Assembly (NCBI GenBank): GCA_016937995.1
Contig: JAFGVM010000071.1
Span: 1-40,302 of the forward strand
Direction: 5' to 3'
DNA length: 40,302 nt
From: Candidatus Delongbacteria bacterium
GTDB lineage: Bacteria > UBA4055
The stretch's first letter is position 1. Each line of letters starts with the position of its first letter. A program made the position numbers and the translations under genes. The notes under the pieces are model-generated. The model was not told the origin of the DNA, did no database searches, and saw nothing but the letters and a program-made list of their open reading frames with translations. Shown piece after piece: positions 58 through 5,443 of the stretch.

Positions 58-810
58 TTATAAAACACCCTCATCATTGAATTCGCGTTCCTTGTGGAAG
101 AATTTGAAATAAACTATCAGGAATACTACAATAACAGCCGATGATACTATAGATTCGTACGGATGATCTACAAGTAGAATAGATCTATCAATGAACAATG
201 ATACTCTTCCCATAACAGTTGAACCGAATGCCGCACCAAAGAAGATCATCATTATCAAAATACCTACCCTTGCTGTTTTTCCAAGTAATCCTCTGTGAGG
301 CTTTGAGAAAAAGAAATACATCAAAGCTGAAAAAGTACCGAATACTAATACGATCCATTTTGAAGTCTCATAAAAAGTTCCCTGATTAACGTTCTCCATA
401 AGACTTGTACTCTGCATAAGTATGTTCTGTACCTGAATAGGTATCTGCATACCTGCCATATATCCGAAAATGAATCCGAAATAGTAATTTGCGACCCAGG
501 CTTTTTTTCTACTGAATCTGAAAAGCATTGTAGAAGCAAGAAGTAACCAGAAAATGATCGTAAGATCAGATAAATGGAACTCTACGAACATATCTGTTAA
601 CGGCATAATGAAAAAAGGTTTTACACTTATATGCCACAGTAATGTCCAGAAATATCCTAACGATATACCAATAAAGATATTTTCACCAATTTTAAATAAT
701 GGATTGTCTCTATACAAAAATGACATTATCATAAGAGTAGCTATAACAGGCACCCAGTTCGTAAAAAAATCATTTAAAAAGATTGCATCCAAAAATGTAT
801 TCAAGTCCAT
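58..810 (-). CDS. Polytopic membrane protein (about 7 TM), 4th gene of DUF6754 operon
   Basis: 250 aa, alternating hydrophobic helices and basic loops (RDNPLFK, RFSRKK, KPHRGLLGKTAR); GGAGG RBS; ATG overlaps the upstream TAA. Confidence 0.85.
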   Translation of the reverse strand: MDLNTFLDAIFLNDFFTNWVPVIATLMIMSFLYRDNPLFKIGENIFIGISLGYFWTLLWHISVKPFFIMPLTDMFVEFHLSDLTIIFWLLLASTMLFRFSRKKAWVANYYFGFIFGYMAGMQIPIQVQNILMQSTSLMENVNQGTFYETSKWIVLVFGTFSALMYFFFSKPHRGLLGKTARVGILIMMIFFGAAFGSTVMGRVSLFIDRSILLVDHPYESIVSSAVIVVFLIVYFKFFHKEREFNDEGVL

Positions 811-1649
811 TACTTACCTCCTTTCTTACGTTCTATGAAATAAACAATATTACCTATCAGAACGAGTCCGAATATGACCAAATGTGAAAATGTTAAGGAC
901 GACAATCCTTTTGTTGCACTTCCGTAATAGTCAACTTTATATTTTTCTGAAACTAACTTCTCATATTCAGCTGCACCTCTAAGTCCGTTACTTAATCCAA
1001 CAAGCTGTCCTGTTTGATAGTAAGGAATAAAGTCAGGACCAAGCACCGCTGTAACAGCAAGAGCAAATTTGTAATGAAACCTGATCTGCATATCAATGAA
1101 AGCCTGATGCCAGCCCGAACCGGTAAGACCCAGCATAAAATCAATATCCTCCAAAGTTTCAACTCCTTCAAATATCTTTCCTTCTTTCTTGAATGTCCCT
1201 TTATAATCTGAGACCATACTGAATATCTGAATATTAGGCATAATAGGGATATAGTCCATATGTATGTAATCTACTCCTTCCTCCAAATTCCTGAATTCTT
1301 CCATGTTCATTATTTTTTTAACTGTCTCTTTTCCAAGTCCCATTCCGTTAACTGACGCACCATAATAAATAAATACTTTTAGTTTCTTGATCAAACAATG
1401 CTTATAAAAAGCTTCAAAAAATGGTAAAAGTTCAGCTTTTTGTGTTGGTGTGAATGCAAAATCTATATGTACGGCATCTCCTTCTTTCAAGGCTTCTATC
1501 TCATCAAAGATGGCTTTTGTTTCTTTCGAAGCTGAGACCGGGAATTTAAGAAAATCAAATCCTGGAATCAGAGGAATAATGATCGACAGAAACACCAAAA
1601 GATATATAATCCTTCTGTCGAGATTTTTAAGTTTTTCTAATATGTTCAT
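810..1649 (-). CDS. Two-TM membrane protein with alpha/beta soluble domain, 3rd gene of DUF6754 operon
   Basis: 279 aa; N-terminal TM after DRR, C-terminal TM before RKKGGK; motif PYYQTGQLVGLSNGLRGAAEYE. Confidence 0.85.
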   Translation of the reverse strand: MNILEKLKNLDRRIIYLLVFLSIIIPLIPGFDFLKFPVSASKETKAIFDEIEALKEGDAVHIDFAFTPTQKAELLPFFEAFYKHCLIKKLKVFIYYGASVNGMGLGKETVKKIMNMEEFRNLEEGVDYIHMDYIPIMPNIQIFSMVSDYKGTFKKEGKIFEGVETLEDIDFMLGLTGSGWHQAFIDMQIRFHYKFALAVTAVLGPDFIPYYQTGQLVGLSNGLRGAAEYEKLVSEKYKVDYYGSATKGLSSLTFSHLVIFGLVLIGNIVYFIERKKGGK

Positions 1650-1677
1650 ATTTCAACCTTTATTATTTTCTTTTATT

Positions 1678-2292
1678 TTATTCAGACAAGTGTGATCTTT
1701 CAAGACCAAAGAATATTCTTATCATCATAGTTATCATACCAAGATAACCTCCAAAGATGATCGCTCTTCTTCCTGCACTTGAAGGAGCATCCATGATCCA
1801 TTCACCTATCACAGGTATCTTATCCCACATTGCTTCACCCAGAGTAATCTTACTTAGCATCACGAACACAGAAGCAATAAGCAACACTGCTGATTCAAGA
1901 GATTTAGCTTTAAATGATCTGTAAGCTGCTGATGCTATGTAAAAAGCAAGTAATGCAAATACTGTTGCCTGGAAAGGAATGTATACATTGAAGAACATTG
2001 AACTGAAAGGTGTTCCGGCCGCTGTTCCTCTTTGAACACCAAGGAATATCATAAGAATTATCATTGATACTCTCAGAATAGAGTAGTACCTTTCATTGTT
2101 GTACTTTATTTTATAGTAATTCTGTCTTACAACAGAATATGCAGCGATCATTATTCCTACTACACCACCGATTTTCAATCCGTTGGAAAAAAATATCTTA
2201 AGATTATCAAAGAACATCCCTGCAAAGAAGAACTCCAGATACCATAAGCTGGCAGCAATAAGTCCTAATAAAATTGGTATTTCTTTTTTCAT
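1678..2292 (-). CDS. Polytopic membrane protein (about 6 TM), 2nd gene of DUF6754 operon
   Basis: Start moved to ATG 2292 (MKKEIP) with AAGGA upstream, which removes the overlap with 2313..4178; 204 aa; motifs FALLAFYIASAAYRSF and GRRAIIFGGYLG. Confidence 0.85.
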   Translation of the reverse strand: MKKEIPILLGLIAASLWYLEFFFAGMFFDNLKIFFSNGLKIGGVVGIMIAAYSVVRQNYYKIKYNNERYYSILRVSMIILMIFLGVQRGTAAGTPFSSMFFNVYIPFQATVFALLAFYIASAAYRSFKAKSLESAVLLIASVFVMLSKITLGEAMWDKIPVIGEWIMDAPSSAGRRAIIFGGYLGMITMMIRIFFGLERSHLSE

Positions 2293-2312
2293 TTTATCAT
2301 TATCCTTTTTTA

Positions 2313-4178
2313 TTAATGTGTTGACAACAAGTCTCTTATAAACGTCCATTCTGGATTTAAAGTCAGTAATATAGTACTGATAACGAACAAACTACCAAAT
2401 ATCAGCTTTCCGTAATCAGAAAGTTTCAGATTTGATAAAATTTGGGCATCTCTTGAAAGATAAGCTGCAGCTGCATAAAGTTCCTCACCTATCAAAGTGT
2501 AATCACATGCAGTAATGAAGAATGGCAGCTGAGCAGCTGAAACAGTACCTGCGACCTGTATAGCTCCTGCTGCAAAACCAGCTTCTGATATCAGTAATGA
2601 CTCAGCGGCATAATAACCAAAGTGAAGTGCTGTAGCCGGTTTCTTTCTGGCAATTATACCTGATAGACCTGCTGCAAAAGCAAACTGGTCCTGTACAAGA
2701 AAAAAACAGTTATCTTTTTTATGATCTTCAGGATAACCTGCATCTAAAAAACCTGATGCTATCATTTCTTCTGCTATCTGAAGAACGATAGGGTCATAGG
2801 CAGGATAAATTATCTCAGCTTTAAATTCAGCGACTTTTTTTGCAACACTTCTCAGAATAAGCATACTTGCAATAGTCTGAGGCTCAGTGAATCCACCTAA
2901 TCCCGAGTCATATATAATGGGTTTACCCATTTCTGTTGCTCTTCCTACTGCTTCATCGATCGCATCCAGGCCGGGGATCCTTCTTATAAAGATCGAATCT
3001 TTCTTTTTTCTAACGGTGAGAAAAACATAAAAGAAAAGAATGAAGAACATAAATGTGAAAATCAAGACGTTAGTTCTGTATGTTCTAAAACCAGAATCGA
3101 CGTCAAATCTAAAATATTTTTTTGATGCAGAACCCAGGTCCTGGGCAAATTTAATTTTAAGTATATTTTTAAAGTATGTTTCAAATTCCGGATCATCATC
3201 AATTAATTTCTTAACCAGTTCATTGCCTACATCGTAAGTACCGTTAAAACTTCTGTACTGGTTAACTACTCCAAGTATTCTTGTAACCTCGGTAGAGTAA
3301 ACATTGTCTATCGTAACTGCTTTCGCATCGAGCCATTTTTCATGAAGTTCTTTTGATTTTAACTCATCATCTTCTTCTTCAGCTTTCTTTTTTGCCTGAT
3401 ATGTGGTCTCAATGTTAGTTGCGATCTCTTCGAGATACTTCTCTTTATTACCTCTAACATAATCTCCAAGTTTCTTTGAGAAAAGTTCAAGTTTTTCCTG
3501 TAAGTCATCATCAATGTAAAGGAAGTAGACCCTTTTATCTGTTACACGTGTAACTTCTGCGTAAATATTGTCAAGCATTTCATCGTAACCAATGGTATAT
3601 CTCATAAGAACCTTGTATGAGCTTTGTAATTTATCACCATAGTCCTTTATACCATTGTTATCAGCTGCTTCAAGTCTGATAAGATCGTCAATTGCAGTAA
3701 GTTGATCCTGCATTGGTTTAGAAAGATGACCTACAAGTGCCGGATTCTCAATTTCTCCGGCCAATTCTTTGTCTATCCATGATAAATTATTTTCGAGTAG
3801 ATTTCTCAGTGTTTCAGAAACACCGTTATCTTTCAATTCCAGAATTGCTACTCTGATCTTCTCAAGTTCTACTGCAGTAATTTTGTTAGGATCTTCTCCT
3901 GATTTGAAAAAATCTTCCATAAATCCTATAATCCGGGGAAGAAGAATATCATAATCTCGGGTTACATCCCATTCATCGCTGATCTTTGTAAATTCTTCGG
4001 CAACTTCTTTACAAAGCTTTTCTTCATCGCTAAGCTCTTTTACAGGCTCAGCAAAAACAGTTGAATCTGTTTCAGTTACTGATAAAGAATCCTGTTTACT
4101 TTCAGGTGCGGTGTCGATTTGTGCATACATATACAAGACGAGCATCAAAAGTATCAGGATTGATAAAGTCCTTTTCAT
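2313..4178 (-). CDS. DUF6754 domain protein with signal peptide and large helical extracytoplasmic region
   Basis: 621 aa; MKRTLSILILLMLVLYMYA signal peptide; TM near aa 370-390; motifs IRRIPGLDAIDEAVGRATEMGKP and LPFFITACDYTLIGEELYAAAAYL recognised as DUF6754. Confidence 0.8.
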   Translation of the reverse strand: MKRTLSILILLMLVLYMYAQIDTAPESKQDSLSVTETDSTVFAEPVKELSDEEKLCKEVAEEFTKISDEWDVTRDYDILLPRIIGFMEDFFKSGEDPNKITAVELEKIRVAILELKDNGVSETLRNLLENNLSWIDKELAGEIENPALVGHLSKPMQDQLTAIDDLIRLEAADNNGIKDYGDKLQSSYKVLMRYTIGYDEMLDNIYAEVTRVTDKRVYFLYIDDDLQEKLELFSKKLGDYVRGNKEKYLEEIATNIETTYQAKKKAEEEDDELKSKELHEKWLDAKAVTIDNVYSTEVTRILGVVNQYRSFNGTYDVGNELVKKLIDDDPEFETYFKNILKIKFAQDLGSASKKYFRFDVDSGFRTYRTNVLIFTFMFFILFFYVFLTVRKKKDSIFIRRIPGLDAIDEAVGRATEMGKPIIYDSGLGGFTEPQTIASMLILRSVAKKVAEFKAEIIYPAYDPIVLQIAEEMIASGFLDAGYPEDHKKDNCFFLVQDQFAFAAGLSGIIARKKPATALHFGYYAAESLLISEAGFAAGAIQVAGTVSAAQLPFFITACDYTLIGEELYAAAAYLSRDAQILSNLKLSDYGKLIFGSLFVISTILLTLNPEWTFIRDLLSTH

Positions 4179-4303: not shown

Positions 4304-5443
4304 TCAGTAGCTGTAAACTTTTACGATCATATTTGTATCATCATAAATCAGCAACTTATCATCAACAAATACTTTACTAAATTCATCCTCAGCTCTGTAA
4401 AAATCATTATCTTTATTAAAATTAACTGTGTTCAAAAAAACACCTGATTTAAATATGTCAACTACAAATTGGAACTGATCAGATTTTTCAGTTTTCCGTG
4501 CACTTTCAACCAGTAAATAACCATTTTTATCAATGTACAATTTTTTAATAGAATTTTTAAAGGTCATTTTATCAGTATCTATATTTGCTCTTCTGAATCT
4601 TCTTTCTGTGATCTCTTTCATGTAGGCAATTTCCTCATCACTGTATCTGATACGGGCAAAATTTTTCTTTATTGTTTCAATATGTTTTCCATCTGAATCG
4701 TAAACTTTTATGGAATATTTACTGTTACTCGTTTCGACAACATATACTTTTTCGTTATCAGTCGTGAATTCAATGATATGGTCCATCGGATTATAAGTTT
4801 CCCAGTCAAAATCAAAAGATTCAGAATAGAGTGAATGGAGAACGTTGAACTTCCTGTCAAAGATAGAAAGTTGAATAGTCATTACCCTTGCACCGCTGTT
4901 TCTAGAAACGTTGGATAACATACCTACAAACTTATCGTTATTAAATTTTGTGAACGATCTTGGAGTACCTGTATCTCTGGGCATCAAAATATCACTGATA
5001 TAATTACCGTCCGAATCAAATTTCAGAACTTTCCGTGCTCTCATATCAGAAACGTAGATAGTATCTTCCGAGATGACCATATCAGATGGACGGACCATCT
5101 CCCCTGGACCGTTACCTCTCTTCCCCATTGAAAGAATATATTCTCCTTTCGTATCGAACTTCTTTACAACTGACTTTCTTCTATCAAGGATATACAGATT
5201 CCCTTTACTGTCAGTTTTCACCATTGAAATATCATTCAGAACAACATTTGTGTCAGCGATATCTTCTTCATATTCACCAACTGAAAAAAGTTCTTTTGTG
5301 GTATATTTAAAATTTTTGTCAGATGGATTTGTATTCTTGTAAATTTTAACAGCATCAATACCTTTAGAAGAATTATCTTTTTTTGAGCAGCCGGCAAAAA
5401 CCAAGATCAAGCTTATTATAACAAAATAGAATATCTTTTTCAT
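4304..5443 (-). CDS. 6-bladed beta-propeller (NHL-like) lipoprotein
   Basis: Lipobox VFAGC; NHL-like blades DSKGNLYILD, GKRGNGPGEM, IYVSD; AAGGAG RBS. Confidence 0.8.
   Translation of the reverse strand: MKKIFYFVIISLILVFAGCSKKDNSSKGIDAVKIYKNTNPSDKNFKYTTKELFSVGEYEEDIADTNVVLNDISMVKTDSKGNLYILDRRKSVVKKFDTKGEYILSMGKRGNGPGEMVRPSDMVISEDTIYVSDMRARKVLKFDSDGNYISDILMPRDTGTPRSFTKFNNDKFVGMLSNVSRNSGARVMTIQLSIFDRKFNVLHSLYSESFDFDWETYNPMDHIIEFTTDNEKVYVVETSNSKYSIKVYDSDGKHIETIKKNFARIRYSDEEIAYMKEITERRFRRANIDTDKMTFKNSIKKLYIDKNGYLLVESARKTEKSDQFQFVVDIFKSGVFLNTVNFNKDNDFYRAEDEFSKVFVDDKLLIYDDTNMIVKVYSY

Follow-up and report, generated by a model that had tools for sequence, protein, structure and literature searches.

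The described family that comes closest to the proteins of this study is DUF6754 (PF20539). A full member of this family, A, is encoded by the first gene of a cassette of four tightly packed genes, A, B, C and D, which occupies bases 58-4178, on the minus strand, of a 40,302-nucleotide stretch of Candidatus Delongbacteria DNA (contig JAFGVM010000071.1 of assembly GCA_016937995.1; the whole stretch is called the window below). The closest database relatives likewise carry the label Candidatus Delongbacteria. The product of the third gene, C, has in its predicted structure the same layout as the DUF6754 part of A, i.e., a transmembrane (TM) helix, helix a0, a (beta-alpha)x6 domain and a second TM helix, and it also has the same best PDB neighbours. 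It differs from DUF6754 in giving no hidden Markov model (HMM) or profile-profile match, in lacking the signature motifs of the family and in its opposite predicted face. We consider it quite likely that C belongs to a membrane module made up of four proteins, that it has an A-like build anchored at both ends and that it faces outward, the soluble partners of the module being on the side of A.

Among the PDB neighbours of both the C and the A model are six-stranded Rossmann-like domains of sirtuins, transhydrogenase domain III (4j16_C, 4o9u_B), ACDS epsilon (1ytl_A) and MT0777 (1kjn_B), which we take to make up the 'DHS-like NAD/FAD-binding' fold group. The sequence identity to such sirtuin/transhydrogenase domain III-type domains is 5-13%, and none of them carries a TM helix at each end. 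Another relevant precedent is provided by the inverted-topology paralogue pairs of small membrane proteins, e.g., the paired SMR transporters, in which homology is evident from sequence. A and C resemble these pairs in their neighbouring genes, common architecture and opposite bias of Lys plus Arg residues, but their homology is undetectable by sequence, and a soluble domain of 175-200 residues is placed between only two TM helices. Therefore, one copy of such a pair must export a whole alpha/beta domain.

The cassette is very widespread, often present in two or three tandem copies, and unstudied: a search of literature other than subscription journals yielded no paper that mentions DUF6754, PF20539, PF13941 or the cassette itself. 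The C family alone counts 5285 representatives (E ≤ 0.001, 50%-identity library) and has neither a Pfam or NCBIfam model nor a solved relative. If two alpha/beta domains of like build do sit on the two faces of a core of four subunits, this would offer a concrete start toward the function of the module.

The four genes and their conservation

The genes of the cassette and the segments of A and C are as follows.

2313..4178, minus strand: gene A, 621 amino acids (aa), with a signal-peptide-like N-terminus, an ectodomain of about 340 aa, a TM helix, the DUF6754 domain and a C-terminal TM helix
3084..4178, minus strand: signal-peptide-like segment and variable ectodomain of A, residues 1-365
3006..3083, minus strand: first TM helix of A, residues 366-391, followed by RKKK (helix 27-52 in the model of the domain construct)
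2454..2975, minus strand: Rossmann-like a0-(beta-alpha)x6 domain of A, residues 402-575, predicted cytoplasmic
2358..2447, minus strand: C-terminal TM helix of A, residues 578-607 (helix 239-268 in the model of the domain construct, family hydropathy peak 250-268)
1678..2292, minus strand: gene B, polytopic membrane protein with about six TM helices, predicted N-in, 204 aa from Met20
810..1649, minus strand: gene C, 279 aa, third gene of the cassette
1569..1616, minus strand: first TM helix of C, residues 12-27, with the invariant D11 and R13 at its start
939..1526, minus strand: Rossmann-like a0-(beta-alpha)x6 domain of C, residues 42-237, predicted extracytoplasmic
822..920, minus strand: C-terminal TM helix of C, residues 244-276, with the conserved H256 and N267, followed by RKKGGK
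58..810, minus strand: gene D, 250-aa polytopic membrane protein, predicted N-out, its start overlapping the stop codon of C

Residues 364-611 of A matched DUF6754 with an E value of 3.7e-91 and 305 bits, the Pfam gathering score of PF20539 being 27 bits. In the variable ectodomain, an fn3 match was found in only 1 of 50 A-family members. Nothing credible was obtained for B, C or D in the Pfam and NCBIfam scans, and C gave no PF20539 match in the Pfam scan even at E ≤ 1. When the profiles of the four families were searched against PDB sequences, there was again nothing credible; B was without a match, and D had no family or PDB sequence match at E below 0.09. The open reading frame (ORF) of B encodes 223 aa (2349..1678) and has 37 bases in common with the end of A. 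The likely start of B is Met20 (base 2292), because this start fits both the orthologue ORFs, which are 615-696 nt long in most loci, and the alignment of the B family, and the overlap with A is thereby removed.

To follow the cassette in other genomes, a pattern search for the C family was run with one genome per species, and at least 610 stretches were confirmed, from which 79 loci representing many phyla were kept. The complete A-B-C-D order on one strand was present in 72 of the 79. Of the other seven loci, five are truncated where the contig stops, one has its C gene divided between two ORFs, and the last is a short contig with C only.

The build and fold of A and C

The AlphaFold2 model of C, calculated from a family alignment of 56 sequences, had a mean pLDDT of 94.3 and a pTM of 0.90, and that of A residues 340-621, calculated from 50 sequences, had a mean pLDDT of 82.5 and a pTM of 0.74. 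The two models contain 15 elements in identical order and of close lengths, which are given below in the residue numbers of C and of the A-domain construct.

TM (first): C 12-27, A-domain 27-52
a0: C 42-53, A-domain 63-78
b1: C 59-65, A-domain 82-87
a1: C 68-87, A-domain 94-112
b2: C 91-95, A-domain 117-121
a2: C 100-114, A-domain 124-141
b3: C 128-130, A-domain 152-154
a3: C 138-147, A-domain 159-173
b4: C 171-176, A-domain 177-183
a4: C 182-191, A-domain 188-198
b5: C 195-199, A-domain 201-206
a5: C 204-212, A-domain 209-218
b6: C 218-221, A-domain 221-224
a6: C 222-237, A-domain 226-236
TM (last): C 244-276, A-domain 239-268

Family-averaged hydropathy revealed only two TM segments each in the DUF6754 part of A and in C. 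An earlier reading of the window from its sequence alone had suggested that C is a remote DUF6754 paralogue on the grounds that six short strings follow each other in the same order in both proteins. All twelve strings are present and collinear: AIFDEI (46-51), AVHIDFA (59-65), KVFIY (91-95), FALAVT (195-200), FIPYY (207-211) and RGAAEYE (224-230) in C, and AIDEAV (406-411), PIIYDSG (420-426), EIIYP (455-459), QVAGT (541-545), QLPFF (550-554) and YAAAAYL (568-574) in A. Each of the six pairs falls in equivalent elements (a0, b1, b2, b5, a5 and a6, respectively), and thus the order is real at the level of secondary structure; at the level of letters the similarity is not above chance.

The top-50 lists of PDB neighbours of the C and A models have 14 entries in common (1kjn, 1ytl, 4j16, 4o9u, 5ojn, 3u31, 4i5i, 6lrf, 6ij7, 4g65, 5but, 6i8v, 6lzx and 7w09), with nearly the same chain ranges. 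For example, residues 279-450 of 4j16_C align with C 41-236 and residues 280-445 with A-domain 63-237. Transitive mapping through the common neighbours places C 41-237 on A-domain 62-237. Neither model had a match at E ≤ 0.001 in a Foldseek search against the PDB. The models thus predict the same fold for A and C, and the different folds that would have spoken against a relationship were not what we found. Conservation is densest over b5-a5-b6-a6, adjoining the last TM helix, in the A as well as in the C family, and the minimal A forms (258 aa) are near the size of C (273-280 aa). The A consensus has a Gly-x-Gly-x-x-Ser-type loop after strand 1, and the C consensus has no nucleotide-type Gly loop.

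Sidedness of the two domains

The features from which opposite orientations of A and C had been deduced are as described in the sequence-only reading: A has a signal-peptide-like start and RKKK after its TM helix, and C has the basic ends KLKNLDRR and RKKGGK. We counted the Lys plus Arg residues within 12 residues of the TM ends and observed that the bias is uniform in both families. The A family averages 6.09 such residues on the domain side and 2.64 on the side of the termini, the domain side being higher in 83 of 85 sequences, with two ties and no reversal. In the C family it is the side of the termini that is richer (7.25 versus 2.52 on the domain side; 205 of 207 sequences, two ties, none reversed). 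The 15 residues after the first TM helix of A-family proteins contain 4.5 Lys plus Arg on average. A heuristic call assigned a signal-peptide-like N-terminus, preceding the ectodomain, to 88 of the 111 full-length A proteins, and most of the listed A proteins without such a call have a hydrophobic start devoid of Lys and Arg. The minimal 258-aa A forms, which have no ectodomain, begin with a neutral or acidic tip followed by the TM helix and then a basic stretch, and their C neighbours have basic ends. These patterns suggest that the A domain is probably cytoplasmic and the C domain extracytoplasmic, i.e., that the predicted sides are opposite, as had been proposed, and not the same.

Some C-family members are 325 aa or longer (P0251-P0388). 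Their insertions, which measure up to about 550 aa and mostly belong to no family, lie at two hot spots, one near profile position 110-115 and the other in the stretch from a6 to the last TM helix. The insertion in P0268 is a CARDB (cell-adhesion) domain (E 1.1e-6), which agrees with a position outside the cytoplasm. That the long forms arose by fusion with A, B or D was considered and ruled out, since the additional length comes from insertions.

Comparison of A and C by sequence

BLASTP of C against A gave scattered matches, the best with an E value of 1.5, outside the register that had been proposed for the two proteins. HMM-sequence searches in both directions, carried out with filters off on 2310 ORFs of the loci, gave E values of 0.89 and 3.7 as the best scores between the two families. 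Among the 50 highest-ranking non-self rows the opposite family was over-represented (10 and 16 rows), yet so was D (12 and 8), and therefore this excess was put down to TM composition.

Family profiles of C and A were compared by hhalign in pairs built from 95 and 67, 79 and 70, and 173 and 70 sequences, using local, global and low-mact settings. The best matches covered TM helices only (P 0.035-0.053, probability 1-1.5%), and a collinear alignment of 221 columns was obtained only as the second alternative (P 0.079). The largest C profile did have a collinear top match, which placed the last TM helix on the last TM helix and could be extended to 225 columns, at low confidence (P 0.044, probability 1.2%). 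The soluble domains without their TM helices gave E values of 0.2-0.8, with or without secondary-structure lines derived from the models. In addition, we compared the family profile scores of 13 equivalent pairs of C and A elements with those of 72 non-equivalent pairs of like type. The means were -0.030 and -0.030 (Mann-Whitney p 0.56, permutation p 0.55). The signature motifs of DUF6754, which in the A consensus read GRATEMGKP after a0, QLPFF in a5 and CDYT.IGEE.YAA.AY at b6-a6, have no counterpart in the C consensus, where YD.IE.L.EG, PD.YPY.QTGQ and GL..GLKGAAEYE stand at the equivalent places. Thus, of the claim that C is a remote DUF6754 paralogue, the common build and fold class are upheld by the models, whereas homology at the level of sequence is not, as no test rose above chance; the profile-profile comparison, which had been proposed as a check, gave no significant match.

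Comparison of B with D and of every other pair among the four families gave hhalign probabilities of 0.3-0.4% (0.4% for B and D). A duplication of two genes, from A-B to C-D, was considered and dropped: as B and D have no similarity, it is not claimed here despite the predicted location of their N-termini on opposite sides.

Genes of putative soluble partners

A family of soluble 375-aa proteins with a weak RnfC_N barrel-sandwich match is encoded directly upstream of the cassette in 26 of the 79 loci. In two Armatimonadota loci (L048 and L071) the gene of this protein is itself preceded by a gene for a PF13941 'MutL' (GlmL-type, actin-fold) protein. This pair, found upstream of the cassette in other phyla, is not in the window. 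We examined co-occurrence in 121 genomes from the phylum of G014, the Nitrospira sp. genome that contains locus L044. PF20539 was present in 19 and PF13941 in 20 of the 121 genomes, and in each of the 19 PF20539-positive genomes PF13941 lay 2-3.5 kb away, on the contig that carries PF20539. In the twentieth genome PF13941 is represented only by a fragment of 66 residues where the contig stops. In the phylum of the source genome, both PF20539 and PF13941 occur in 14 of the 14 genomes searched, and the result therefore does not discriminate.

In the source genome itself the pair lies apart from the window, on contig C29 (L086, 20000-34000):

L086 ORF 7911-9827, minus strand: PF13941 'MutL/GlmL' actin-fold protein, 638 aa
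L086 ORF 6750-7874, minus strand: 374-aa RnfC_N-like protein, 50% identical to the cassette-upstream protein of locus L044

The next genes after the pair encode a 249-aa protein without a family and a protein of 696 aa, one end of which resembles Peptidase_M29. Another contig (C1:1580-4489, L085) has a frame of about 985-1014 aa that consists of a PF13941 part followed by a part resembling the 375-aa protein, with one TAG inside the second match.

A model of the module and its alternatives

The computations show the architecture, the fold class, the linkage of the genes and the bias of charge. What we infer is a physical complex in the inner membrane with A (DUF6754), B, C and D as its subunits, the sides given above as its sidedness in vivo, docking of soluble partners and any role that the module may have in transport or signalling. 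A and C would each contribute one TM helix, a0 and a six-stranded Rossmann-like (beta-alpha)x6 domain whose a6 is immediately followed by the second TM helix. They would be inserted in opposite senses, so that the C domain would be outside together with the variable ectodomain of A. The TM hairpins of A and C may pack against the polytopic B and D, and one alpha/beta domain would then cap the membrane core on each face. The cytoplasmic A domain could serve as a docking or ligand-binding site for soluble partners, for which the actin-fold PF13941 'MutL/GlmL' ATPase-like protein and the 375-aa barrel-sandwich protein are the candidates, and the outward C domain could handle the target of the module, whatever it is, in the envelope.

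Several observations weigh against this model. No test linked A and C by sequence, and in a language-model search of the ESM Atlas 30 of 30 feature matches belonged to C's own family, with no usable named cluster. The agreement of the two folds is one of element order and common neighbours rather than of pairwise superposition, and the sidedness is a prediction from the positive-inside rule and signal-peptide logic. HEAT repeats, which are more usual in the cytoplasm, are inserted in the supposedly external domain of the C-family member P0346. As for the partners, the genomes from the phylum of G014 are kin, and their co-occurrence is therefore not a statistical test; moreover, one of the three cassette-bearing genomes checked (G016, the closed Zixibacteria chromosome with locus L053) yielded nothing for PF13941 at E ≤ 0.001.

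The HEAT insertion would be explained if both domains were cytoplasmic and formed a pseudo-symmetric heterodimer, the charge bias being misleading; Rossmann-like domains are also, as a matter of general knowledge, more often cytoplasmic. Nevertheless, we regard this arrangement as very improbable, as both basic ends of C would then be outside, which in 205 of 207 sequences would break the positive-inside rule. It is further opposed by the lack of a nucleotide-type Gly loop in C and by the CARDB domain in P0268. With C facing outward as the preferred reading, the likeness of the two subunits could be the trace of an ancient paralogy, in which one double-anchored Rossmann-like gene was duplicated and one copy was flipped via redistribution of Lys and Arg, the similarity having since decayed beyond detection. 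Alternatively, two unrelated Rossmann-like domains, each double-anchored, could have been recruited independently to the same complex and be alike by convergence on a common fold. The architecture common to A and C, with a TM helix at both ends of (beta-alpha)x6 and the same order and lengths of elements, is rare, and such an element-for-element match, a0 and all six beta-alpha units included, is hard to reconcile with independent recruitment, as is the persistent linkage of the two genes in one cassette across loci. The fact that they share an operon (72 of 79 loci) and their best PDB neighbours, the minimal A forms near C in size, the dense conservation next to the last TM helix in both families and the collinear match of the largest C profile, extendable to 225 columns, all favour duplication. 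However, that match reached only P 0.044 and a probability of 1.2%, the soluble domains alone gave E values of 0.2-0.8, equivalent elements scored no better than non-equivalent ones (p 0.55), the DUF6754 signature motifs are missing from the C consensus, B and D share no similarity (0.4%) and the Rossmann-like fold is very common. The absence of a sequence signal between A and C and the Gly-rich loop after strand 1, present in A and not in C, are what independent recruitment would predict, and we hold it to be possible, though less likely than not. We propose tentatively, as a serious possibility that falls somewhat short of an even chance, that a single double-anchored Rossmann-like protein was duplicated long ago and that A and C are the two copies, fixed in opposite orientations. 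If they are, the module would have a pseudo-two-fold axis in the membrane plane, with an alpha/beta cap inside and outside, and the pair would represent an unusual topology inversion with export, in which a whole 200-residue soluble domain, and not just the TM helices, has switched sides.

Copies of the cassette and neighbouring genes

Two or three complete cassettes stand head to tail in 10 of the 79 loci (L011, L018, L026, L028, L040, L045, L047, L049, L065 and L067), and a partial extra copy was seen in 5 further loci. The source genome has a second A-B-C-D cassette on contig C40 at about 843-3122 (loci L001 and L004), with DUF6754 at 2376-3122 and the C family at 843-1673. Nitrifiers and anammox bacteria are among the carriers. 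In one locus a complete C gene is immediately preceded by a separate 448-aa ORF (L036:1255-2598), which matches the B family and, with 137 bits, also the HMM of the C family; this ORF may represent a gene fusion or a remnant, or the frame may have been called too long.

Directly upstream of A, at 4304-5443 of the window and on the minus strand, lies the gene of a 379-aa lipoprotein-like six-bladed beta-propeller (DUF5128, E 1.4e-16). A DUF5128-type gene also precedes the cassette in another Delongbacteria locus (L006) and not in other phyla.

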